NCBI GenBank assembly: GCA_017463815.1
Contig: JAFTOK010000092.1
Coordinates: 1 to 40,796, forward strand
DNA: 40,796 nt
Source of the DNA: Clostridia bacterium
Lineage (GTDB): Bacteria; Bacillota; Clostridia; Oscillospirales; CAG-272
Direction: 5' to 3'
Shown here one piece after another: positions 1 through 33,430 of the stretch. A program made the translations under genes and the position numbers. How positions within the stretch are numbered: position 1 is the stretch's first letter; each line of letters starts with the position of its first letter. A model generated the notes under the pieces. That model ran no database searches. It saw nothing but the letters and a program-made list of their open reading frames with translations, and had not been told where the DNA came from.

Positions 1-204
1 ACGCAGGAGCTTGTTACAGAGGGCGTTATTTCCGGCGGTATGATACCGAAGGTGGAATGCTGCACGGAGGCTATACGCCGCGGCGTTAAGAAGGTGTTCG
101 TTATCGACGGCAGAGTGCCCCATTCGCTCCTTATCGAAATACTCACCGACGAAGGCATGGGCACGATGCTCGTTTCAGGCGACGGCGTTTCGGAGGCTAA
201 ATGA
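1..204 (+). CDS. argB: Acetylglutamate kinase, C-terminal fragment (truncated by window edge)
   Basis: Frame 1 translates as ...ISGGMIPKVECC...VIDGRVPHSLLIEILTDEGMGTM...AK*, the typical NAGK C-terminus. The stop overlaps the argD start (ATGA). Confidence 0.93.
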   Translation, partial: TQELVTEGVISGGMIPKVECCTEAIRRGVKKVFVIDGRVPHSLLIEILTDEGMGTMLVSGDGVSEAK

Positions 205-1379
205 TGAATACGAACGAGCTAGATACAAAATACGTCGCGAATACGTACCACCGTGTTCCCGTAGAAAGAGTAAGCGGCAAGGGCGCGCGCCTTTTCGACG
301 AAAACGGCAAGGAATATATAGACATGGGCGCGGGTATTGCCGTTAATACCTTCGGCATGGCAGACGAAGGCTGGGTCGCGGCCGTTACGGCACAGCTTTC
401 TAAATTCCAGCACACCTCGAACCTTTACTACACGGAGCCTTGCGCGCGTCTTGCCGAAATGCTTTGCACGCGCACGGGCATGAAAAAGGTATTCTTCGGC
501 AACAGCGGCGCAGAGGCAAACGAATGCGCCATAAAAGCCGCGCGCGAATACGGGATTACGAAAAAGGGCGAGGAATACTATAACATCATAACGCTTAAAA
601 ACAGCTTCCACGGCAGAACGCTCGCAACGCTCGCGGCAACGGGGCAGGACGTTTTCCACGAACATTTTACACCTATGCCCGAGGGCTTCCTCTACGCGGC
701 GGCGAACGACTGCGAAGGGCTTGAAAAGCTCGTGGCGGAAAACAAGGTCTGCGCTATCATGTTCGAACTCGTGCAGGGCGAGGGCGGCGTAAACGCGCTT
801 TCCCGCGAGTTCGTGGCGAAAATTGCGGAGCTTTGCGAAAAATACGACCTGCTTATGGTAGACGACGAGGTTCAGTGCGGCAACGGCAGAACGGGCGCGC
901 TCTATGCGTATATGCACTTCGGCATAACGCCCGATATCGTAACTACGGCGAAAGGGCTTGGCGCGGGGCTTCCCATAGGCGCGACCATGTTCGGCGAAAA
1001 GGCGGCGGATATTTACAAGCCCGGCTTGCACGGCAGCACATTCGGCGGCAACCCCGTTTGCGCGGCGGGCGCGTGCCATGTGCTTTCGCGCCTTACAAAT
1101 GAGCTTATGGCAGACGTTACGGCAAAAGCCGAGTATATAAAAAATGCGCTCTGCGGCGCAGAGGGCATAAAAAGCGTTTCAGGCATGGGCCTTATGATGG
1201 GCATTGAAACGGAAAAGAAGGCGGCAGACGTTGTTGCCGCCGCAATGGAAAAGGGCGTGCTTCTTCTCACGGCGAAAACGAAGGTGCGCTTGCTCCCCCC
1301 GCTTAATATAACTTACGAAGAGCTTGAAAAAGCAGTTGAAATTATAAAAGAGGTATGTAAAAATGAAACACTTGCTTAA
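201..1379 (+). CDS. argD: Acetylornithine aminotransferase (class III PLP enzyme)
   Basis: Motifs NSGAEANE, SFHGRT, DEVQCG, TAKGLG (PLP lysine), HGSTFGGNP. Lies between argB and argF. Confidence 0.95.
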   Translation: MMNTNELDTKYVANTYHRVPVERVSGKGARLFDENGKEYIDMGAGIAVNTFGMADEGWVAAVTAQLSKFQHTSNLYYTEPCARLAEMLCTRTGMKKVFFGNSGAEANECAIKAAREYGITKKGEEYYNIITLKNSFHGRTLATLAATGQDVFHEHFTPMPEGFLYAAANDCEGLEKLVAENKVCAIMFELVQGEGGVNALSREFVAKIAELCEKYDLLMVDDEVQCGNGRTGALYAYMHFGITPDIVTTAKGLGAGLPIGATMFGEKAADIYKPGLHGSTFGGNPVCAAGACHVLSRLTNELMADVTAKAEYIKNALCGAEGIKSVSGMGLMMGIETEKKAADVVAAAMEKGVLLLTAKTKVRLLPPLNITYEELEKAVEIIKEVCKNETLA

Positions 1380-2274
1380 ACTTATGGACTTGAGCTACAA
1401 GGAAATTCTCGAAATTCTCAACCTTGCAGACCAGCTTAAATACGAAAAGAAATACGGTATTGAGCACCACTATCTTAAGGGCAAAACGCTCGGTATGATA
1501 TTCCAGAAATCCTCCACGCGTACGCGCGTTTCCTTTGAGGTTGGTATGTACGACCTCGGCGGCAGCGCACTCTTCCTTTCCTCCCGCGACCTCCAGATTG
1601 GCCGCGGCGAGCCTATTGAAGACACAGCACGCGTGCTTTCCCGCTACCTCGACGGTATTATGATTCGTACGTACGACCAGGAAGAGGTTGAAAAGCTTGC
1701 AAAATACGGCGATATTCCGATAATCAACGGTCTTACAGACTACGCGCACCCCTGCCAGGTGCTTGCCGACCTTATGACAATACGCGAGCATAAGGGCTCT
1801 ATCCGCGGCAGAAAGCTCTGCTTTATAGGCGACGGCAACAATATGGCAAACTCCCTTATCGTAGGCGGCATAAAAATGGGTATGTCCGTGGCAATCGGTT
1901 GCCCCAAAGGCTATGAGCCCGACGCCGAAATTATGAAATGGGCGAGCGAAAACGGCGAATTCCTCTGCACAGACGATATTTACGAAGCCGCAAAAGACGC
2001 AGACGTCGTTTACACAGACGTTTGGGCATCTATGGGCGAAGAAGCGGAAGCAGAAGCAAGAAAGCAGATTTTTGCGGGCTTCCAGGTAAACGCAGAGCTT
2101 ATGGCTGTTGCCAAAAAGGACGCAATGGTGCTCCATTGCCTGCCCGCACACCGCGGCGAAGAAATCACGGCAGACGTGCTCGAAGCACACGCGGCTGAAA
2201 TCTTCGACGAAGCGGAAAACAGACTCCACGCACAGAAAGCCGTTATGGTTATGTGTATGAGAAACAAAGGCTAA
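1363..2274 (+). CDS. argF: Ornithine carbamoyltransferase
   Basis: Motifs SSTRTR, HPCQ, DVWASMG, HCLP, FDEAENR. Confidence 0.97.
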   Translation: MKHLLKLMDLSYKEILEILNLADQLKYEKKYGIEHHYLKGKTLGMIFQKSSTRTRVSFEVGMYDLGGSALFLSSRDLQIGRGEPIEDTARVLSRYLDGIMIRTYDQEEVEKLAKYGDIPIINGLTDYAHPCQVLADLMTIREHKGSIRGRKLCFIGDGNNMANSLIVGGIKMGMSVAIGCPKGYEPDAEIMKWASENGEFLCTDDIYEAAKDADVVYTDVWASMGEEAEAEARKQIFAGFQVNAELMAVAKKDAMVLHCLPAHRGEEITADVLEAHAAEIFDEAENRLHAQKAVMVMCMRNKG

Positions 2275-2278
2275 AATA

Positions 2279-2326
2279 AAAAACGCACTTGAAAAGTTTA
2301 ACCGCTTCTTAAGTGCGTTTTCTTTT
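2279..2326 (+). terminator. Rho-independent terminator of the arg operon
   Basis: AAAACGCACTT...AAGTGCGTTTTCTTTT hairpin directly after the argF stop. Confidence 0.75.
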
Positions 2327-2332
2327 GCCTAC

Positions 2333-2361
2333 TTGAAAACGTATGTGAAAAATGGTATAAT
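2333..2361 (+). promoter_or_regulatory. Sigma-A promoter for trkA1-trkH1
   Basis: TTGAAA-17 bp-TATAAT with extended -10 TG. Confidence 0.75.
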
Positions 2362-2425
2362 TAAAAGGTAAAATGAAAAACTTGGAAAAGACACGGTAAA
2401 AAACGTTTCGGAAGGGAAGTTTTCT

Positions 2426-3787
2426 ATGAAAATAATTGTTGCAGGCTGCGGAAAAATAGGCAGAGCTATAGTTAAAAGCCTCGTGGCAGAGGGGCACGAC
2501 ATTCTTATAATAGACACTAAGCCCGAAATAGTGGAAGAACTTACGAATATTTACGACGTAATGGGTATTTGCGGCAACTGTGCCGACAGCGATATTGTAA
2601 GCGAAGCGAACGCCGGTGAAGCAGACATCTACCTCGCCGTGGCAGACTCCGACGAGCTGAATATGCTCAGTTGTTTTATAGCCAAACGTATGGGCGCAAA
2701 AGATACCATAGCGCGTATACGCGCCCCCGAATATAACGATAACAGCTTGGTGTTTATGAAGGATAACCTGGAAATATCTATGCCCATAAACCCCGAGCGC
2801 CTCGCCGCACAAGAGCTCTTCAATATACTCAAATTCCCCTCTGCGCTGAAGGTGGAAACCTTTTCTCGCAGAACTATGGAAATGACAGAGGTGCGCTTGC
2901 AGGAAGATTCCGTGCTCGACGGCGTCAAACTTCTCGATATACGCCAGAAATTTAAAGCGCAAGTGCTTATTTGCTGTGTGCAGAGGGGCGAAGATGTGTT
3001 CATTCCCGACGGTAACTTCGTGCTTCGCGGCGGCGACAGAATAGGCGTTACGGCTTCTAATGCGGAGCTTGTGAAGTTTTTCAAAAACACGGGGCTTTTG
3101 CAACGCCCTGTTAAAAACGTCATAATCCTCGGCGGCAGCCGCACGGCGTATTACCTGGCGGAAATGCTGATTGATATAGGCGCAGACGTAAAAATTATAG
3201 ATAAAGACGAAAATATTTGCGAAAGTTTGAGCGATTCCTTGCCGCAAGCGGTCGTGATTCACGGCGACGGCTCGGAGCAGGAGCTTCTTCTGGAGGAAGG
3301 CATTTCCACGGCAGATGCCTTTGTTTCGCTCACGGGTTCCGACGAAACGAACATACTTGTTTCTATGTTCGCTATGATGAACAACGTGAAAAAGGTTATT
3401 GCCAAAGTAAATCGCGACGAAATCGCGCCTATGGCGGAAAGGCTTGGCCTTGACTGCATCATTTCCCCCAGAAAAATCGTTTCGGATGTGGTTCTGCGAT
3501 ATGCGCGCTCTCTCGAAAACTCTATGGGCAGCAACGTGGAAACGCTCTATAAGCTTATGGACGATAAGGTAGAGGCGCTGGAATTTAACGTGCGCGCAGA
3601 CGCAAAATGCCTGAACACGCCGCTGAAAGATTTAAAACTGCTAAAAAATCTGCTTATTATCGGCATTGTGCGCGAGGGAGCCGTTATAACACCATCAGGT
3701 ATGACGGAAATTCACGCGGGCGACAGGGTCGTGCTTATAACTACGAACAAAGGGCTCGGCGACCTTTCCGATATTTTGGCAAAGTAA
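2426..3787 (+). CDS. trkA: Trk potassium uptake regulatory subunit (RCK domains), copy 1
   Basis: 453 aa. N-terminal KIIVAGCGKIG Rossmann motif, second ILGGSR motif, paired RCK_N/RCK_C layout, adjacent to trkH. Confidence 0.95.
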   Translation: MKIIVAGCGKIGRAIVKSLVAEGHDILIIDTKPEIVEELTNIYDVMGICGNCADSDIVSEANAGEADIYLAVADSDELNMLSCFIAKRMGAKDTIARIRAPEYNDNSLVFMKDNLEISMPINPERLAAQELFNILKFPSALKVETFSRRTMEMTEVRLQEDSVLDGVKLLDIRQKFKAQVLICCVQRGEDVFIPDGNFVLRGGDRIGVTASNAELVKFFKNTGLLQRPVKNVIILGGSRTAYYLAEMLIDIGADVKIIDKDENICESLSDSLPQAVVIHGDGSEQELLLEEGISTADAFVSLTGSDETNILVSMFAMMNNVKKVIAKVNRDEIAPMAERLGLDCIISPRKIVSDVVLRYARSLENSMGSNVETLYKLMDDKVEALEFNVRADAKCLNTPLKDLKLLKNLLIIGIVREGAVITPSGMTEIHAGDRVVLITTNKGLGDLSDILAK

Positions 3788-3801
3788 GGGCGGTTTGATT
3801 T

Positions 3802-5256
3802 ATGAATTACAGAATTGTTTTACATACGGTGGGGCGCATTTTGCAGATAGAGGCTTTGCTTATGTTGCTCCCCCTCGCCGTAAGCGTTATCTATGCGGGG
3901 CAGGACGGTACTGCCGCAATATGGGCGTTTCTTATAGCTATCGGCATATCTCTTGCGCTCGGGTTCTTTCTTACGTACGTTCTGGGCAAAAACAATAATC
4001 TGCTTTTTGCGCGCGAGGGCTTTGCCATAGTTGCGCTTGCGTGGATTCTTATGTCCGTGGTGGGCGCTCTGCCGTTCGTTATAAGCGGGGAAATCCCCTC
4101 CTTCATAGATGCGTTTTTTGAAACCGTGAGCGGCTTTACCACGACGGGCGCTTCCATTCTTACAGACGTGGAGGCTATGAGCCACGGTATGCTCTTCTGG
4201 CGCAGTTTTACGCACTGGGTGGGCGGTATGGGTGTTCTCGTGTTCGTAATGGCTATTTTGCCGCAGGACACGGGCAGAAATATCCATATAATGCGCGCGG
4301 AAATGCCCGGGCCCATTGTGGGCAAGCTTGTGCCCAGGCTTAAAGATACGGCGAGAATACTCTACGTTATCTACATTGTTCTTACGGCGGTGGAGGTTGT
4401 TTTGCTACTCCTCGGCGGTATGTCGCTTTTCGATAGCTTGCTTCATTCGTTCGGCACGGCGGGTACGGGCGGTTTCGGTATAAAAGCCGACAGCCTCGGC
4501 GGCTACAACGCTTATTTACAATGGGTTATAACCATATTTATGCTGGTTTTCGGCGTGAACTTCAACCTCTATTATCTTATTCTTATAAAACAGTTTAAAA
4601 CCGCCATCAAAAGCACGGAGCTTTGGGTGTACGGCGCTATAGTGTTCGTTTCGGGCGTGCTTATTTCGTTTAACATTTACCCTATGCTCGGCGATGTGGG
4701 CGATTCCGTGCGCCACGCGTTCTTCCAGGTGGCTTCCATAATAACCACGACGGGCTATTCCTCTGTGGATTTTAACCTGTGGCCGGGCTTTTCAAAGGCA
4801 ATTCTCGTTGTGCTTATGTTTGTGGGCGGTTGCGCGGGCTCTACGGCGGGCGGCATAAAGGTTTCGCGTTTTATAATAGCGATAAAGACGGTTTTCAAGG
4901 ATATAAAGAAAATGCTCCACCCTCGCTCTGTTGCGGGCGTGAAGTTAGAGGGCAAAAAGGTAGACGATAAAACAATAAATTCCGTAAGCACGTATTTTGC
5001 TTTCTATTTTATCATTTTCCTAATCATTTTCCTTTTGCTTTCGCTTGAACCGTTCGATTTTGAAACGAATTTTACAGCGGTTTCCGCTTGCTTTAACAAT
5101 ATAGGTCCTGGGCTTTCGGCGGTAGGCCCTATGGGCAGCTTCTCGATATATTCCGATGCGGCGACATTGTTGCTTTCCTTTGCGATGCTTCTCGGCAGGC
5201 TCGAAATTTTCCCTCTGCTGCTCATTTTTACACCGTCTATGTGGAAAAAGAAATAA
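3802..5256 (+). CDS. trkH: Trk potassium channel subunit, copy 1
   Basis: Four pore loops TTTG, GTGG, TTTG, NNIG. Also GGCAGST loop and GRLEI. Confidence 0.95.
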   Translation: MNYRIVLHTVGRILQIEALLMLLPLAVSVIYAGQDGTAAIWAFLIAIGISLALGFFLTYVLGKNNNLLFAREGFAIVALAWILMSVVGALPFVISGEIPSFIDAFFETVSGFTTTGASILTDVEAMSHGMLFWRSFTHWVGGMGVLVFVMAILPQDTGRNIHIMRAEMPGPIVGKLVPRLKDTARILYVIYIVLTAVEVVLLLLGGMSLFDSLLHSFGTAGTGGFGIKADSLGGYNAYLQWVITIFMLVFGVNFNLYYLILIKQFKTAIKSTELWVYGAIVFVSGVLISFNIYPMLGDVGDSVRHAFFQVASIITTTGYSSVDFNLWPGFSKAILVVLMFVGGCAGSTAGGIKVSRFIIAIKTVFKDIKKMLHPRSVAGVKLEGKKVDDKTINSVSTYFAFYFIIFLIIFLLLSLEPFDFETNFTAVSACFNNIGPGLSAVGPMGSFSIYSDAATLLLSFAMLLGRLEIFPLLLIFTPSMWKKK

Positions 5257-5267
5257 AATATAACTTT

Positions 5268-5297
5268 AGCCTTCCCCGACAGGGGAAGGCTTTTTTT
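5268..5297 (+). terminator. Rho-independent terminator after trkH1
   Basis: AGCCTTCCCC-GACA-GGGGAAGGCT followed by a T run. Confidence 0.8.
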
Positions 5298-5302
5298 GTA
5301 TA

Positions 5303-5669
5303 ACGAAAAAACCACGCGATAGTCGCGAGGTTCAATAAAGGCTATGCCGATAAATTGAAAAGAAAAAAGTGGTAGGAGATGTTGTGGTGTCAAAGGCTCC
5401 CTTGTGCAAAGGGAGCTGTTGAGCGATAGCGAAACTGAGGGATTGTTACAAAGATTTACTATTTTTTCTAAAACAATCCCTCCGTCTTTTGCTTCGCAAA
5501 ATCCACCTCCCTTTGCACAAGGGAGGCTTGTATAAAAACCCATTTATGGGTATAAGTAATAATTGCGTGGCTGGCAGGCCAATCTAAAACGCACTTGTGC
5601 GTAGCCAGTAGCGTTTAGGGATATGCCCGAAAATGAAATATCCCCCGTTATACGTGGGGAATATTTATT
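5303..5669 (+). mobile_element. Probable internally deleted IS200/IS605-like remnant (no transposase ORF)
   Basis: Subterminal hairpins at 5310-5332 (AACCACGCGA-TAG-TCGCGAGGTT) and 5638-5664. The stretch CCCATTTATGGG...GCTGGCAG...GGGATATGCCCGAAAATGAA resembles clostridial IS200 3' ends as I recall them (not searched). Confidence 0.45.
5394..5528. repeat. REP-like inverted doublet (REPIN-like)
   Basis: GGCTCCCTTGTGCAAAGGGAG...GAGGGATTGT faces ACAATCCCTC...CTCCCTTTGCACAAGGGAGGC. A close reverse-complement copy lies at 33275-33407. Confidence 0.9.
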
Positions 5670-5707
5670 GCCGGGCGCAAAAATCTTTCCAACCTTTATT
5701 GCAGGTA

Positions 5708-5736
5708 TTGCAAAAGCGGTTAAAAAATGGTAAAAT
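5708..5736 (+). promoter_or_regulatory. Sigma-A promoter for trkA2-trkH2
   Basis: TTGCAA-17 bp-TAAAAT. Shares AAAAATGGTA.AAT with the trkA1 promoter. Confidence 0.65.
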
Positions 5737-5792
5737 AAAAAAAGAAATATTATATGAATTTTAACTTGACAACTGTTAGGGGATTTGGGTTT

Positions 5793-7154
5793 ATGAAAAT
5801 TATCATCGCGGGTTGCGGTAAAATCGGCACGACTATTGTGGAAAGCCTTGTAGCAGAGGGCCACGATATACTTATAATAGATAACGACGATTCTATAATA
5901 CAGGAAATAACCAATGTGTTCGACGTAATGGGCGTTTGCGGCAACTGTGTAGACAGCGACGTTTTGGAGGAAGCGAGCGTGAAAACAGCAGAGCTTTTCC
6001 TTGCCGTTACGGATTCCGACGAGCTGAATATGCTCAGCTGTTTTCTCGCAAAAAAAATGGGCGCGCAACACACAATCGCGCGTATACGCACGTCCGAGTA
6101 TAACGACAAAAGTTTGCTCGTTATGAAAAATAACCTGGAAATATCTATGCCCATAAACCCCGAGCGTCTTGCCGCACGCGAGCTTTTCAATATACTGAAA
6201 TTCCCGTCTGCCGTAAAGCTGGAAACCTTTTCCCACAGAAATATGGAAATGGCAGAGGTGGTTTTGCGAGAGGATTCGCCGCTGGACGGCGTTAAGCTTT
6301 CCGAAATCCGCGGCAAATTCAAAGCAAACGTGCTTGTTTGCTGTGTTCAGCGCGGCGAAGAAATCTTTATTCCCGACGGTAGCTTTGCGCTTCGCGGCGG
6401 CGACAGAATAGGTATGACGGCATCGCATACGGAGCTGCAAAAGCTTTTCCGCTACACGGGCTTGCTGAAAAAGCAGGCAAGGGACGTTATAATTCTCGGC
6501 GGCAGCCGCGTTTCCTATTATCTTGCGGAAATGCTCGCGGAAATCGGCGCTTCGGTTAAAATTATAGACCGCGACGAAAAGGTTTGCGAGCTTTTGGGCG
6601 ATAAGCTGCCGAAGGCTGTGGTTATACGCGGCGACGGCACACAGCAGGAGCTGCTTCTGCGCGAGGGGCTTTCCCGCACAGATGCTTTTGTGGCGCTTAC
6701 GGGGCTTGACGAAACAAACGTGCTTATTTCTATGTTTGCCACGCGCAGGGGCGTGCCGAAGGTGATTGCAAAGGTAAACCGCGAGGAGCTTATTCCTATG
6801 GCGGAGGATTTGGGGCTTGACTGCATCGTTTCCCCGCGAAAAACCGTTTCCGATGTTGTGGTAAGCTATGCCCGCGCCATAGAAAACTCGCTGGGCAGTA
6901 ACGTAGAAACGCTTTATAAACTTATGGACGATAAGGTGGAGGCGCTGGAATTTAACGTGCGCGAAAAATCGCGCGTGGTGGATGTGCCGCTTAAAAACCT
7001 TAAACTGCGCAAAAATATCCTTATTATCGGCGTCATACGCGACAGAAAACTTATAACCCCCACGGGTGAAACGGAAATACAGCTCGGCGACAGGGTAGTG
7101 GTTATTACCGCAAACCAAGGCCTGGGCGACCTTTCCGACATACTTGAAAGATAA
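5793..7154 (+). CDS. trkA: Trk regulatory subunit, copy 2
   Basis: Colinear paralog of 2426-3787. Start placed at MKIIIAGCGKIG (ATG 5793), giving the same 453 aa length. Confidence 0.95.
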   Translation: MKIIIAGCGKIGTTIVESLVAEGHDILIIDNDDSIIQEITNVFDVMGVCGNCVDSDVLEEASVKTAELFLAVTDSDELNMLSCFLAKKMGAQHTIARIRTSEYNDKSLLVMKNNLEISMPINPERLAARELFNILKFPSAVKLETFSHRNMEMAEVVLREDSPLDGVKLSEIRGKFKANVLVCCVQRGEEIFIPDGSFALRGGDRIGMTASHTELQKLFRYTGLLKKQARDVIILGGSRVSYYLAEMLAEIGASVKIIDRDEKVCELLGDKLPKAVVIRGDGTQQELLLREGLSRTDAFVALTGLDETNVLISMFATRRGVPKVIAKVNREELIPMAEDLGLDCIVSPRKTVSDVVVSYARAIENSLGSNVETLYKLMDDKVEALEFNVREKSRVVDVPLKNLKLRKNILIIGVIRDRKLITPTGETEIQLGDRVVVITANQGLGDLSDILER

Positions 7155-7165
7155 GCGGGGTTTTT

Positions 7166-8611
7166 ATGAATTACAGAATTATTTCACATACGGTAGGGCG
7201 GATTTTACAGCTTGAAGCGGCGCTTCTTTTGCTTCCGCTTTTCGTAAGCCTGCTTTACCGCGAAACGGATAACGTAATAGCTTTTCTTATTTCTGCGGCG
7301 GCGGCACTTGCCGTTGGCTTGCTCCTGACATATGTTCTCGGTAAAGACGATAGACTGCTTTTCGCACGCGAAGGCTTTGCCATAGTTGCGCTCGCGTGGC
7401 TCGCTATGTCTGCCGTGGGCGCTTTGCCGTATGTCATAAGCGGGGCAATCCCCTCTTATGCAGATGCGTTTTTTGAAACGGTAAGCGGTTTTACAACCAC
7501 CAGCGCCACTATACTCAACGATGTGGAAAACCTGAGCAACGGTATAATTTTCTGGCGCAGTTTCACACATTGGCTCGGCGGTATGGGTGTGCTTGTGTTT
7601 ATTATGGCGATTTTCCCGCAGGAATCGGGCAGAAGCATACATATTATGCGCGCGGAAATGCCGGGGCCCACGGTGGGTAAGCTCGTGCCCAAGCTAAAAG
7701 AAACAGCGCGCATACTTTACCTTATATATATCGGCATAACTATTGTGGAGGCGATTTTGCTGTTTCTCGGCGGTATGTCGCCTTTTGAAAGCTTTGTTCA
7801 CGCCTTCGGTACGGCGGGAACGAGCGGCTTTGCCATAAAAGCCGACGGTCTTGCGAGCTATGCACCCCACTTGCAATGGATGGTTATGGTGTTTATGCTG
7901 ATAGGCGGCATCAACTTCAACCTCATTTACCTTATGCTTATAGGGCATTTCAGGCCCGCCGTAAAAAGCACGGAGCTTTGGGTGTACCTTATAATCATAG
8001 TTGTGGCGGGCGTTGCCGTTACGTTCAACGTTATGCCAATATACGGTTCGTTTTGGGAATCGCTCCGCCAGGCGTTCTTCCACGTGATTTCTATTGTGAC
8101 CACAACGGGTTATTCCATTTCAGATTACAACGAGTGGCCGCTGTTTTCCAAAACATTGCTCGTTGTCCTTATGTTTGTGGGCGGTTGCGCGGGTTCGACC
8201 TCGGGCGGTATTAAAATTTCACGTTTTATACTTTTAATCAAAGCTGTTTTCAGGGATATAAAGCAAATGCTTCACCCCACGGCGGTTTCGGGCGTTCGCT
8301 TCGACGGCAAAAAAGTAGACGATAAAACCATACACGGCGTAAGCACGTATTTTGCGTTTTATTTTATAATTTTCTTTGTTATACTTATGCTTATTTCCTT
8401 TGAACCGTTCGATTTTGAAACGAATTTTACGGCGGTTTCGGCTTGCCTTAACAATATCGGCCCCGGATTTGGCGCGGTAGGGCCGCTTGCCAGCTTTTCG
8501 GCGTATTCCGTGCCTGCGAAGTTTTTGCTTTCCTTTGCGATGCTTCTCGGCAGACTTGAAATTTTCCCGATATTGCTTCTTCTTATGCCCTCGTTCTGGG
8601 CGAGAAAATAA
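7166..8611 (+). CDS. trkH: TrkH-family cation channel, copy 2, with altered filter (TTTS)
   Basis: Paralog of 3802-5256. Pore loops TTTS, GTSG, TTTG, NNIG. Confidence 0.93.
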   Translation: MNYRIISHTVGRILQLEAALLLLPLFVSLLYRETDNVIAFLISAAAALAVGLLLTYVLGKDDRLLFAREGFAIVALAWLAMSAVGALPYVISGAIPSYADAFFETVSGFTTTSATILNDVENLSNGIIFWRSFTHWLGGMGVLVFIMAIFPQESGRSIHIMRAEMPGPTVGKLVPKLKETARILYLIYIGITIVEAILLFLGGMSPFESFVHAFGTAGTSGFAIKADGLASYAPHLQWMVMVFMLIGGINFNLIYLMLIGHFRPAVKSTELWVYLIIIVVAGVAVTFNVMPIYGSFWESLRQAFFHVISIVTTTGYSISDYNEWPLFSKTLLVVLMFVGGCAGSTSGGIKISRFILLIKAVFRDIKQMLHPTAVSGVRFDGKKVDDKTIHGVSTYFAFYFIIFFVILMLISFEPFDFETNFTAVSACLNNIGPGFGAVGPLASFSAYSVPAKFLLSFAMLLGRLEIFPILLLLMPSFWARK

Positions 8612-8633
8612 AAAAGTTGACTTCGTCAACTAT

Positions 8634-8658
8634 AAAACGCCCGAAATCGGGCGTTTTT
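8634..8658. terminator. Bidirectional terminator between trkH2 and the small membrane protein gene
   Basis: AAAACGCCCG-AAAT-CGGGCGTTTTT. Confidence 0.8.
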
Positions 8659-8660
8659 GT

Positions 8661-8804
8661 TTATTCATCGCGTTTGCTTTTTTCGTATTCTTCATATTCC
8701 TCGCGTGTCATAGGTTTTTTGCGGTTGAAGCGCATCGTGGAAAAAACGCCGAGGGCGATGATAGCAACCACCAACCCTATTGCTATGTAACCCGTTATAT
8801 CCAT
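8661..8804 (-). CDS. 47-aa single-pass small membrane protein (not in the ORF track)
   Basis: MDITGYIAIGLVVAIIALGVFSTMRFNRKKPMTREEYEEYEKSKRDE. GGAGG RBS 6 nt before the ATG, and a terminator right after the stop. Confidence 0.8.
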   Translation of the reverse strand: MDITGYIAIGLVVAIIALGVFSTMRFNRKKPMTREEYEEYEKSKRDE

Positions 8805-8892
8805 TTTAAACCTCCAAAATCTGTTTTTATATTGCTTTTGCCGCCCCGATGTGGTAAACTAAAGAAAATTCACGCATTTCGGGGGCTTTTTT

Positions 8893-9780
8893 ATGAATAA
8901 AAATCTTCGCGGCGGGGCTATATTGCTCCTTACCGCCATAATATGGGGCTTTGCTTTCGTGGCGCAGAGCGAGGGTATGGAAAAAATCGGTGCGCTCACG
9001 TTTCAAGCCTCGCGTATGTTGCTCGCCGCGCTGGTGCTTTTGCCAACAGCGCTCGTTTTCCACAAAGCAGGGGAAAAGAAAAACGGCGAAAAAGCGGCGT
9101 TTATGGATAAGAAAACGCTGCTTGTGGGAATAGTCTGCGGCTTTTTCCTTTTCGGTGCGTCTGCGCTCCAGCAGATGGGCATCGCGCACACGAGCGTGGG
9201 GCACGCGGGCTTTCTCACGGCGCTCTACATACTCATCGTGCCCGTGCTCGGCATTTTTACGGGCAAAAAAGTGGGCTCGCGCATCTGGCTTTGCATCGCG
9301 CTTGCTCTTGCGGGGCTTTACCTGCTTTGTATGACGGGCGAGGGGTTTTCTATGTCGCTCGGCGACGTGCTCGTAACGCTGTGCGCGTTCGTTTTCGCCC
9401 TGCACATCATCGCGGTGGACAAACTTGCGGGCGCGCTCGACGGTGTTAAGGTGTCGCTTGTGCAGATGACTTTTGCGGGGTTGTTGTCGCTTGCTTGCGC
9501 GTTCATTTTTGAAGAACCGAATATTTCGGACATAGCGGCATCGTGGCTGCCCATAGCGTACGCGGGCGTGCTTTCCTGCGGCGTGGCGTACACCCTGCAA
9601 ATCATAGGGCAAAAATACACCGAGCCGACGGTGGCTTCGATTATAATGAGCTTGGAATCCGTTTTCGCGGTGCTCGGCGGTGCTGTTTTGCTCGCACAAT
9701 TTCCAACGCTGCCGGAGCTTGCGGGTTGTGCGCTTATGTTCGCGGCAACCGTAATCTCACAAATACCTTCCAAAAAATGA
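8893..9780 (+). CDS. DMT/EamA family permease
   Basis: About 10 hydrophobic helices. Motifs IWGFAFVAQ, GVAYTLQIIGQ, SLESVFA. Confidence 0.9.
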   Translation: MNKNLRGGAILLLTAIIWGFAFVAQSEGMEKIGALTFQASRMLLAALVLLPTALVFHKAGEKKNGEKAAFMDKKTLLVGIVCGFFLFGASALQQMGIAHTSVGHAGFLTALYILIVPVLGIFTGKKVGSRIWLCIALALAGLYLLCMTGEGFSMSLGDVLVTLCAFVFALHIIAVDKLAGALDGVKVSLVQMTFAGLLSLACAFIFEEPNISDIAASWLPIAYAGVLSCGVAYTLQIIGQKYTEPTVASIIMSLESVFAVLGGAVLLAQFPTLPELAGCALMFAATVISQIPSKK

Positions 9781-9866
9781 TGCTCACGCATCGTTTTTTT
9801 GTTTTTTCAAAGAGTGCTCCGTATTCGAATAAGAACAAAAATTGCTTTCGCAATTTTTGAAATTTA

Positions 9867-10275
9867 TTTTATTCGCGCTTTTCTTTATTTGAAAGAAAAG
9901 GCGCGGCAAAAGAAGCAAAAAAACGTGCCGTTTTATCGCTTTGGTTCTGCTGACAACTATGGCAAGAACCGCTCCCCGAGTGGAATTTTTGCTCCGAACG
10001 CTTCGCAAAAATTACTCGGAACCACGCGGTTGATGGCATAAAATTCAAGTTTGCGATTTTTCGCAAACTTCGCGTATTTATATTCACCAAAATAAGGCCT
10101 GCGCGGCTCGTTATGGCTTGATTACAAGTTTTCACGCGTCGATATATTCGAGCTTTGAATACACTTATTCGCCGCGCTATTCGCACACATCAAATCTGCG
10201 CACACCGAGCGATAAACCGTTAGGGTTTTTGCTTCTTTATTAACTTTTTCTTTCAAAAAGAAAAAGTTAATAAAA
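9867..10275. repeat. Non-coding element with ~75 bp imperfect inverted ends (MITE-like or structured RNA)
   Basis: 9867-9945 aligns with the reverse complement of 10204-10275. Several internal hairpins. Confidence 0.7.
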
Positions 10276-10319
10276 TTATTAGGAAAGACGAAGGCTTTCC
10301 TGCCATACGCTCTTTGAAA

Positions 10320-10347
10320 GAAAAAGCCGCGCAAGGCGGCTTTTTTC
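10320..10347. terminator. Bidirectional terminator
   Basis: GAAAAAGCCGC-GCAAG-GCGGCTTTTTT. Confidence 0.8.
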
Positions 10348-10356
10348 GTCATTTTC

Positions 10357-11925
10357 TCAGTTTTCTTTCTTTTCTTCGTGGTATTCCTTTTCCGTGTTCA
10401 CGTTCCAGATGGCTTCGCGGGAAGCATCGCCGTTTTTGAGCACGCGAACAGCCTCAAACGCTGTCATCATAGAGTGGTCCATATTGTTGTAGCGGTGCTG
10501 GCCGTTTCTGCCTATGCAGTAAAGGTTGCCAATGCCGTCGAGGTAGTTTTTAACCTTATCGAACTGCGCGTACGTGCCGAAATACGCGGGGTACGCCTTT
10601 TTAACTTTCGCACGGACTGCATCGAGAATGTCTTCTTTGTCGATTATACCGATTTTTTCAAGCTCCGTGGATGCAAAACGAATAAAGTCTTTGTCGTTCA
10701 TTCTCCAGAGCATATCGCCCTCGGAGCAGAAGTATTCAAGCCCAATCCAAACGGTGTTTTTAAAATCTTTAACCATATAGGGCGACCAGTTGTTGAAAAT
10801 CTGAAGTCTGCCGATTTTCACGTCGCGCTCCTGAATGTAAATCCAGCAGTCGGGCACGATGTCGCCAACGGTTTTGATTTTCGTTTCGTTCTTGATTTTC
10901 AGCTTGTTTACAAGCAAGCCTACCGTTATAAAATCGCGGTACGGCAAGTTTACGGCAACGTCGTGTACGTCCTCGGGTACAACTTCGCCCATACCTGCCA
11001 CGAGGTCTTTTATTGGCATTGTGGAGAAGTAGTAGTCCGCTTTCATCATTTCCTCTCTGCCGTTGTGGAGCACGCCCACGGAAAGGATTTCCTTGCCGTC
11101 TGTTTCGAGCGTCTTTACAGCACAGTTTTTGATGATTTTGCCGCCAAGCTTTTCAATTTCTTCGGCAACGGTTTCCCAAAGCTGACCGGGGCCTTTTTTC
11201 GGGTAGATATACTGCTCTATAAGCGAAGTTTCCACATTTTTCGCGTCTTTTTTCTTGAAAGGCTTCGTAATCATATCCGCCACAGCTTTGCGGAGCGAAA
11301 GACCTTTTACACGCTGTGCGCCCCAAGAGGGGTCGATGTTTTTGGGGTTCACACCCCAGAGCTTTTCTGTGTAATCTTCAAAAAACATTTCATAAAGAGG
11401 TTCGCCGAAGCGGTTGATGTAGAAGTTTGCGAGCGAATCTTCCTCTTTTTTGAACATAGCGGATTTAACGTAGCCGAATCCCGCTTTCATCGTGCGCGCA
11501 AAGCCCATATTCGTGAAAGTCTGAAGCTTCAGGCTTATGGGGTAATCGAAGAATTTTTTAAGGTAGTATATGCGCGAAACGCGGTTGCGCACGAGCATAA
11601 CCTTGTCCTCTTTTTCGGGGTCGGGGCCGTTTTCCGCGAGTTTTTTTGTCGTCGTGCCGAGAGCGATGTCATCCTTGGAGGGCGCGCCCTGTGTGGGCAT
11701 AAATTTCGCCCAGAACTCGTTTACCTCCTCGCTTTTGGAAAAGAAGCGGTGGCCGCCGATGTCCATTCTGTTGCCATTGTACTCAATCGTGCGGGAAATA
11801 CCGCCGATGAATTCAGATTCTTCCAGAATAATCGGTACGATGTCCGTTTCCGCAAGCAAAGTGTACGCCGCGCAAAGCCCTGCGGGGCCCGCACCGATGA
11901 TTATTGCAGTTTTTTTACATTCCAT
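10357..11925 (-). CDS. FAD-dependent oxidoreductase (protoporphyrinogen oxidase / UDP-galactopyranose mutase-like fold)
   Basis: Motifs [20 protein letters not shown] and C-terminal [14 protein letters not shown]. Confidence 0.85.
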
Positions 11926-11947
11926 AATTTTTCCTCAATTCATAAAA

Positions 11948-12385
11948 TCAATGTCCGCGATAGACGAAAATTTTTCTGCCTATGTAGTTCCAGATAAGCA
12001 CCACACCTTTTACAAAGCAAGTGAGCAAAAGGTACCAGATGCCCGATTCACCTATAAAATACGTGCCGAGAAGCGTAAGCCCTACCGTAAGGAAGTAGCC
12101 TATGACCCCCACAACCGCGTAGATTACGAACGCTTTCACGGTCTTGCCGTCTTTTTGCTGCTCCGCCTTGCGGAAAACGAAGACATTCGAAAGCGCGAAG
12201 TTCACGATAAGCCCTATAACGAAGCCCGCAGTAACTGCGGCGGCAACCTGCCATTTATCGTCCTTCGTAGCGCCCAAAATCAGATAGAGCACCGCGTAGT
12301 TCACGCCCATATCCACGAGCGCCGCCACGCCGCCCACGACGACATAACGCAAAAATTCAAATAATGTGTCTTTTTTCAATTTCAT
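11948..12385 (-). CDS. GtrA-family lipid-linked sugar flippase
   Basis: 145 aa, 4 TM. Motifs FLRYVVVGGVAALVD, NFALSNVFVF, WNYIGRKIFVY. Confidence 0.9.
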   Translation of the reverse strand: MKLKKDTLFEFLRYVVVGGVAALVDMGVNYAVLYLILGATKDDKWQVAAAVTAGFVIGLIVNFALSNVFVFRKAEQQKDGKTVKAFVIYAVVGVIGYFLTVGLTLLGTYFIGESGIWYLLLTCFVKGVVLIWNYIGRKIFVYRGH

Positions 12386-33274: not shown

Positions 33275-33407
33275 AGCCTCCCTTGTGCAAAGGGAGGTGG
33301 ATTTTGCGAAGCAAAAGACGGAGGGATTGTTTCAGAAAATACAAAATGTTTGGCTACAATCCCTCAGTCAGCTTGCGCTGACAGCTCCCTTTGCACAAGG
33401 GAGCCTT
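33275..33407. repeat. REP-like inverted doublet
   Basis: Reverse-complement copy of 5394-5528, with one arm essentially identical. Confidence 0.92.
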
Positions 33408-33430
33408 GAAGGCGAAGTGTTTTATTGCAA

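Follow-up and report, generated by a model that had tools for sequence, protein, structure and literature searches.

The TrkH/TrkA system of Vibrio parahaemolyticus (PDB 3pjz, 4j9u and 6v4j-l) is a structurally solved close homologue of the system described here. In Trk, Ktr and HKT transporters, the single glycine of each pore loop corresponds to the first glycine of GYG (PMC9898762, PMC3797977). The present analysis concerns a contig of 40,796 nucleotides (JAFTOK010000092.1, contig C50 of its genome) from a Clostridia bacterium; the whole contig is referred to as the window. The source genome is a metagenome-assembled genome (MAG) of 2.24 Mb, consisting of 259 contigs with a completeness of 77.8%. 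Two trkA-trkH operons are present in the window and arranged head to tail. TrkH2, the channel subunit of the second operon, carries a serine at the filter position of pore loop 1 and glycine in the other three loops, a pattern (S-G-G-G) shared with the plant class-I HKTs AtHKT1;1 and DmHKT1.

Class-I HKTs are mostly Na+ uniporters (PMC7918770). The loop-1 serine gives DmHKT1 its Na+ selectivity; its replacement by glycine (S84G) adds K+ conductance, and with alanine (S84A) both ions pass, at half the K+ influx (PMC4791408). The same paper ascribes an increased Na+/K+ selectivity to Gly-to-Ser variants of KtrB, and the exchange of serine for glycine in AtHKT1 raises K+ transport (PMC3797977). 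Two Trk paralogs in one genome, as found here, are known from Escherichia coli, where the two handle ions differently: TrkG both requires and takes up Na+, whereas TrkH does not (PMC9898762). In contrast to the pair in the window, that difference maps to an aspartate near loop 3 (PMC9898762). The Gly-to-Ser and Gly-to-Ala variants of Vibrio alginolyticus KtrB resemble TrkH2 in that one filter glycine is replaced in a bacterial Trk/Ktr channel, but they are laboratory mutants, whereas TrkH2 belongs to a natural, conserved TrkH lineage. Judging from titles by Tholema of 1999 and 2005, known from reference lists, KtrB reportedly loses high-affinity, selective K+ uptake when a filter glycine is replaced.

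Filter residues and fold of TrkH2

Gene trkH2 is located at 7166–8611 and encodes 481 amino acids. It is 69% identical at the protein level to the 484 amino acids encoded by trkH1 (3802–5256). All features given with coordinates lie on the plus strand, except for a dispersed repeat without assigned strand. TrkH1 is a canonical channel subunit with the pore loops TTTG, GTGGF, TTTG and NNIGPG and a glycine in all four. In TrkH2, the filter position of loop 1 is occupied by Ser113 (AGC, 7502–7504) within SGFTTTSAT, where canonical TrkH has glycine; the counterpart in trkH1 is GGC at 4147–4149 within SGFTTTGAS. A second serine, Ser220 (AGC, 7823–7825), precedes the loop-2 filter glycine Gly221 and gives GTSGF in place of GTGGF in TrkH1. 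It marks a whole clade of paralogs, hereafter the GTSGF clade. Filter glycines were kept in loop 3 (Gly315, 8108–8110, TTTGY) and loop 4 (Gly432, 8459–8461, NNIGPG). The intramembrane gate loop GGCAGSTSGG (residues 339–348, 8180–8209) and the conserved arginine of the last transmembrane helix (Arg463 of LGRLE, 8552–8554) were retained as well. Gate loop residues G339, C341, G343, S344, T345, G347 and G348 were unvaried in 68 aligned sequences, and the arginine was present in 146 of 146 aligned diverse representatives. Both serine exchanges, the second beside the conserved Gly221, and the integrity of loops 3 and 4, gate loop and GRLE arginine had been pointed out in an initial annotation of the sequence and were found as described. 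Its view that trkH2 is an intact paralog and not a decaying gene agrees with the open frame and the kept motifs.

TrkH2 matched the Pfam family TrkH (PF02386) with an E-value of 1.6e-64 and 218.6 bits (cut-off 27). A phmmer comparison aligned residues 1–479 with TrkH of V. parahaemolyticus (3pjz; E 1.1e-83), to which the identity was approximately 33–34%. Ser113 stands opposite the glycine of TTTGAT, the filter glycine of the first pore loop, and so occupies the position homologous to the serine of class-I HKTs, as the initial annotation had supposed. Ser220 stands opposite the first glycine of IGGF and Gly221 opposite the second. Among 150 diverse representatives, position 221 was glycine in all 149 aligned rows, and position 220 was glycine in 146, alanine in 3 and serine in none. 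The invariance of position 221, the variability of position 220 and the 3pjz alignment together identify Gly221 as the loop-2 filter glycine and Ser220 as its neighbour. An AlphaFold model (AF2) of TrkH2, calculated from a 68-sequence alignment, reached a predicted local distance difference test (pLDDT) of 84 and a predicted template modelling score (pTM) of 0.87. Ser113, Gly315 and Gly432 are each positioned four residues past the end of their own pore helix in this model. TrkH(-TrkA) chains were the best matches to the model in the PDB with TMq 0.88, while KtrB reached approximately 0.7 and plant HKTs 0.47–0.56.

TrkH2 shares full-length homology, fold, four pore loops, gate loop and GRLE arginine with TrkH of V. 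parahaemolyticus, and its partner TrkA2 has two TrkA_N/TrkA_C pairs like the TrkA of that species. It differs in Ser113 and in the serine before the loop-2 filter glycine, where the Vibrio protein has glycine at both positions. Considering the characters of the TrkH family, the profile match, the full-length homology, the fold, the gate loop, the last-helix arginine and an adjacent trkA with tandem RCK domains were all found; one filter glycine per pore loop was found with the single exception of loop 1. TrkH2 is a TrkH by homology and fold, in which the canonical four-glycine filter signature is incomplete.

The likeness to plant class-I HKTs comprises Ser113 and the three glycines Gly221, Gly315 and Gly432. 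In contrast, the HKT structures share only 14–16% identity with TrkH2. HKTs are also said to lack three parts that TrkH2 keeps, namely the gate loop, the partner TrkA and an N-terminal extra domain, modelled as helices H2-58 (PMC7918770). TrkH2 nests among the TrkH proteins of its own bacterial genus and not in the plant HKT lineage; the serine is therefore convergent. Acidic residues are present 5–6 positions past the filter residues of loops 1–3 in both paralogs (D119, D227 and D320 in TrkH2). Such residues have been tied to Na+-activated transporters in a paper on E. coli TrkG and TrkH (PMC9898762); since both paralogs carry them, this feature does not tell TrkH1 and TrkH2 apart.

Distribution and constraint of the loop-1 serine

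In a search of 5.8 billion proteins, position 113 was glycine in 110, alanine in 6 and serine in 4 of 120 aligned TrkH relatives. With cluster members added, the combination of TTTS and GTSGF was present in six distinct sequences with 88.7–91% identity, namely the window protein, P0005, P0006, P0007, P0123 and P0124. The five other Ser-type proteins come from NCBI assemblies, and no two of their contigs have the same size. Logan contigs of two samples confirmed the AGC codon. Those of X1, probably the source sample, cover 6137–8429 with 0 differences, and those of X2, a second sample of the same study, cover 7413–7673, also with 0 differences; low-identity pieces from other organisms' trkH were disregarded in this mapping. 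The initial annotation had allowed for a serine private to this assembly or caused by a sequencing error. The five other proteins and the X2 sequence show that the serine is neither an error nor private.

A residue other than glycine at loop 1 was found in 14 of the 20 GTSGF proteins and in none of the remaining 219 sequences, which comprised TrkH proteins and locus genes. Among the TrkH genes of the fetched loci it occurred in 1 of 197, which was trkH2; the other 196 of 196 were canonical. A scan of the phylum revealed a GGN codon in 132 of 133 loop-1 motifs, detected in 126 of 401 genomes, and trkH2 was again the sole exception; the motifs were tallied by eye, and the search pattern catches only loops flanked by F-E-x-x-S-[GA]-[FL]-T-T-T. 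Of the 150 diverse representatives, 147 were informative at loop 1, and every one of these held glycine; the others were one gap and two N-terminally truncated or misaligned rows (P0377 and P0406). By these counts, the change at position 113 is more than chance. In the other loops of the same representatives, glycine was replaced by alanine (5), cysteine (1) and serine (1) in loop 3 and by alanine (2) and glutamate (1) in loop 4; filter glycines are therefore naturally lost sporadically elsewhere in bacterial TrkH homologues. The loop-3 variants were P0316, P0319, P0342, P0345, P0350, P0375 and P0405; the loop-4 variants were P0361, P0378 and one further row with alanine. P0067 (687 amino acids) and P0310 (691 amino acids) exceeded the usual size of TrkH relatives by about 200 residues and may be fusions or frame errors, and the region of P0310 aligned to loop 4 was unrelated sequence. 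No natural prokaryotic Trk or Ktr protein with serine or alanine at a filter glycine was found reported in the full-text literature, subscription papers and supplements being outside the scope of this search.

A tree of 64 rows (quick search in IQ-TREE under LG+G4, with eight family members as the root) united all proteins with Ser220 in one clade with a Shimodaira–Hasegawa-like approximate likelihood ratio test (SH-aLRT) support of 100. This clade comprised 20 sequences in 14 clusters at 90% identity. It is small, as a second database search from an Ala-type member yielded no further clusters. The loop-1 residue within the clade was serine in 6, alanine (TTTA) in 8 and glycine in 6 sequences. 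The six Ser-type rows formed a clade with SH-aLRT 100, which answers the initial annotation's question whether the TTTS/GTSG variant forms a conserved clade. The eight Ala-type rows formed another with SH-aLRT 100; this sister lineage is new relative to that annotation. The tree requires at least two changes at the loop-1 site. A constraint uniting the Ser rows with the Ala rows in a single clade cost 28 log-likelihood units, with p 0.03 in the approximately unbiased (AU) test for a group that was named only after the tree had been seen. Judged from the sequences, the loop-1 site has changed naturally in bacteria twice, to serine and to alanine, within one small paralog lineage. The two lineages mirror DmHKT1, in which serine is needed for Na+ selectivity and alanine results in an intermediate, non-discriminating pore (PMC4791408).

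Loop 4 also varied within the GTSGF clade. The proline following the filter glycine (NNIGPG) was replaced by alanine or phenylalanine (NNIGAG or NNIGFG) in Gly- and Ala-type members (P0008, P0011, P0012, P0022–P0025, P0027, P0038 and P0039), whereas the Ser-type retained it; proline was present in 118 of 118 canonical neighbours. The exchanges F89Y, Y235H, F247G, Q306H and F321Y were considered as a coordinated remodelling of the pore. This candidate was dropped, with Y89, H306, Y321 and G247 occurring in 41, 14, 41 and 7 of the 150 representatives, respectively.

For the comparison of evolutionary rates, TrkH2, TrkH1 and TrkA proteins were matched to genomes by contigs of equal size. The TrkH2 orthologues were 88.7–90.6% identical, compared with 87.8–93.8% for the TrkH1 orthologues of the same inferred genomes. 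The six Ser-type sequences varied at 89 positions, and five sequences of the TrkH1 type at 92. Residues 113, 221, 315 and 432 as well as Ser220 were unvaried among the six. The TrkH2 orthologues diverge no faster at the protein level than the TrkH1 orthologues that appear to lie on the same contigs. A fragment from a related strain (runs X3 and X4, 7086–7440, approximately 94% identical) showed 12 changed codons, 7 of them synonymous and 5 with conservative replacements, as counted from the 15 of 21 differences listed; the five replacements were located in the variable N-terminal helices.

Two Trk operons with separate TrkA lineages

Each channel gene is preceded by its own trkA, which encodes a regulatory subunit with two RCK domains. 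TrkA1 (2426–3787, 453 amino acids) belongs to the canonical system and matched TrkA_N with E 4.9e-51 and TrkA_C with E 2e-26. It was 88.7% identical to TrkA of genus member G153 and 71% identical to TrkA2 (5793–7154), the subunit of the variant system, which matched TrkA_N (E 6e-50) and TrkA_C (E 1.3e-26) in two stretches each. All four Trk proteins matched their expected Pfam families well above the cut-offs. E. coli TrkG and TrkH share one TrkA, in contrast to the separate TrkA of each copy here.

Trees of 11 taxa placed copy 1 as sister to the single trkAH of G153 for both TrkA and TrkH (support 100; TrkH 100/99), and copy 2 branched from the basal polytomy of the genus. The initial annotation had spoken of a duplicated TrkH. 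Two copies are indeed present in the genome, but the term is misleading if understood as a recent duplication, since the grouping of copy 1 with G153 and of copy 2 with the base of the genus marks them as old paralogs and not as a recent tandem duplication in situ. Copy 2 derives either from an old duplication with subsequent losses or from a transfer between congeners. The genus has 10 further species representatives, in which no second or variant copy was present; their 8 TrkH genes on 9 loci were all canonical (locus L037 lacked loop 1). Searches of the genus (11 genomes) and the family (151 genomes) revealed no TrkH2 orthologue, and a scan of genome contigs revealed no locus above 68% identity. 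Among the matches listed from a metagenome scan with P0127, identity reached at most 61%, and the GTSGF clade was not represented. Two adjoining TrkH matches on one contig were observed in the family sample at G119:C43:29652-32620 and at G081:C56:24651-27582. TrkA2 had a root-to-tip distance of 0.19 compared with 0.12–0.24 for the others and was not accelerated. A much faster evolution of TrkH2 than of TrkA2 was considered and dropped; the excess in the 11-taxon trees was modest, and another genus member showed a similar ratio of TrkH to TrkA.

A search with TrkA2 yielded a TrkA2 clade of 18 rows with SH-aLRT 92. Its members were located on contigs of the same sizes as those of Ser-type TrkH (41988, 75666 and 26654 bases), Ala-type TrkH (21053 and 3374 bases) and Gly-type TrkH (9836 bases). 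Contigs of 41988, 21053 and 13163 bases carried a protein of the TrkA2 clade plus one from the TrkA1 side, as inferred from equal sizes. Gly-type P0008 was an exception, in that the TrkA on its contig (110433 bases) fell on the TrkA1 side. The pairing of the TrkA2 clade with GTSGF TrkH, together with both TrkA types on single contigs, suggests that the two-system arrangement has been kept in several lineages. TrkH1 and TrkH2 orthologues each appear to have a TrkA clade of their own.

The transcriptional layout supports two separate units, in keeping with the own TrkA and promoter proposed by the initial annotation. A hairpin resembling an intrinsic terminator follows trkH1 at 5268–5291 (10 pairs with a T-run, called strong), and a sigma-70-like site lies upstream of trkA2 at 5708–5736 (TTGCAA, 17 nucleotides, TAAAAT, extended TG), which is a consensus match only. 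The open reading frame of trkA2 opens at 5754, which is 13 codons ahead of the conserved start at MKII. The stretch 5754–5792 is without homology, and homology to TrkA1 and all relatives begins at the ATG at 5793, which makes 5793 the likely start. The gap between the end of trkA2 and the start of trkH2 is 11 bases. A further terminator-like hairpin is predicted downstream of trkH2 at 8634–8657.

Neighbouring genes of the operons include arginine-synthesis genes and encode a class-III aminotransferase, an ornithine carbamoyltransferase, an EamA transporter and an amine-oxidase-like protein. A search of positions 1–12000 with Rfam at a permissive threshold yielded nothing credible, with only sub-threshold Phe_leader matches at both terminators. 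Copies of a dispersed, partly palindromic repeat (5300–5670) take up most of the 460 bases that separate the two operons. The repeat has inverted arms at 5393–5418 and 5504–5529 and no match to an Rfam family. It had 50 matches in the genome at 71–100% identity, comprising 26 other contigs, positions 33275–33408 of the window and the region's own matches. The repeat resembles a miniature inverted-repeat transposable element (MITE) or a repetitive extragenic palindromic (REP)-like intergenic element. The two operons contain the only Trk/Ktr genes of the genome, and a gene of the Kup family was not found in it, at 77.8% completeness.

Ion selectivity and alternative explanations

The favoured explanation, held with roughly even confidence, is that trkA2-trkH2 is a functional, long-kept second Trk system with a remodelled filter, which would form a low-affinity, Na+-permeable and possibly Na+-preferring channel beside TrkA1H1. 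A channel of TrkH fold would operate with its own ring of two-RCK TrkA. The filter would be remodelled by the change of the loop-1 glycine to Ser113 and of the residue before the loop-2 glycine to Ser220. The side chain in loop 1 would alter the backbone geometry of one of the four strands forming the K+-coordinating carbonyl rings, and Ser113 may supply a hydroxyl to the ion. As a consequence, K+ binding and selectivity would be weaker and relative Na+ permeation higher, with the Ala sister lineage as an intermediate. Mutagenesis of HKT and KtrB makes a shift in the ion selectivity of TrkH2, towards lower K+ affinity and more Na+ permeation, plausible by analogy. A bolder version is rather unlikely: in a lineage of gut Clostridia, the S-G-G-G TrkH would be a genuinely Na+-selective, TrkA-gated channel convergent with plant HKT1, with the A-G-G-G sister as intermediate, kept beside the K+ Trk for regulated Na+ entry or Na+/K+ balance.

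Several observations weigh against a remodelled, Na+-permeable filter. No Na+-linked gene or riboswitch was present near trkA2-trkH2, as judged from the inspected neighbours and Rfam on positions 1–12000. TsHKT1;2 has the serine and yet takes up K+ (PMC7918770). TrkH is reportedly only weakly selective already (PMC6888753), so the physiological effect of Ser113 may be small. Uptake of Na+ by E. coli TrkG, whose four glycines are all in place, indicates that Na+ handling in Trk does not require the serine change (PMC9898762). The clade-fixed exchanges F89Y, Q306H and F321Y are common in the wider family and thus give no sign of a concerted filter redesign. The root-to-tip distance of TrkH2 was the longest in the genus, though modestly so, with 0.32 compared with 0.16–0.28 for its congeners. 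The group compared in the AU test was chosen with the tree in view, and the co-residence of both systems in other assemblies is derived solely from equal contig sizes.

TrkA2H2 could instead be a plain second K+ uptake system in which Ser113 is tolerated and changes the kinetics at most, e.g., towards lower affinity and higher capacity, and in which regulation or expression is the main difference between the paralogs. Two Trk/Ktr systems are kept in many bacteria. All other features of a K+-conducting TrkH are intact, three of the four filter glycines are kept, and the genomic context shows no link to Na+; as no Kup-family gene was found in the 77.8%-complete genome, the two Trk systems could serve different K+ ranges. 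Exceptional class-I HKTs conduct K+ (PMC7918770), and E. coli TrkG and TrkH differ in their properties with canonical filters (PMC9898762). This explanation is possible but tentative. Against it, a loop-1 glycine that is otherwise invariant (147 of 147 informative representatives, 132 of 132 other motifs) suggests that its replacement is not neutral for normal K+ function, and replacing glycine by serine or alanine in KtrB and HKT reportedly changes both the affinity for K+ and the selectivity (titles by Tholema of 1999 and 2005; PMC4791408).

Conduction or sensing of another cation, such as NH4+, a Rb+/Cs+-like ion or a divalent ion, or a role mainly in efflux, with serine and alanine tuning the pore size for that ion, is improbable. 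Acceptance of both residues in one lineage fits a need for a non-glycine backbone geometry and not for a hydroxyl ligand. Loop 4 of the sister members is changed as well, from NNIGPG to NNIGAG or NNIGFG, and the habitat is an animal gut metagenome. The gut is rich in NH4+, Na+ and K+. Nevertheless, a precedent was not found in the literature consulted and supporting gene context was not seen, which leaves this explanation speculative. An error in sequencing or assembly, or a decaying duplicate, is effectively refuted. Such an origin might be suspected in a MAG fragmented into 259 contigs, all the more as all other Ser-type sequences stem from assemblies of uncultured organisms. However, the codon recurs unchanged in the second sample (X2, 7413–7673, 0 differences) and the serine in five further database sequences from contigs of five different sizes. 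The frame is open with every other motif intact, the protein divergence equals that of TrkH1 and the AF2 model is confident.

The four-glycine rule for K+ and the loop-1 serine rule for Na+ have so far rested on comparisons of plant HKTs and on engineered mutants. If the bolder version of a genuinely Na+-selective TrkH2 is true, it would be the first Na+-preferring member of the Trk/Ktr/HKT superfamily to be found naturally in a prokaryote. The GTSGF clade would then provide a ready-made natural Gly/Ala/Ser series on how one filter residue sets selectivity. This series is internally controlled and comes from an otherwise intact lineage that has a regulator of its own and is accompanied by a canonical copy in the same genome. 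All forms can be expressed in bacterial hosts, and the structure of a close homologue is solved. With this series, the validity of the HKT rule throughout the superfamily could be examined. If TrkH2 is an ordinary K+ channel, a TrkH could do without the loop-1 glycine. A Trk-type channel may serve some gut anaerobes for a purpose other than high-affinity K+ uptake.

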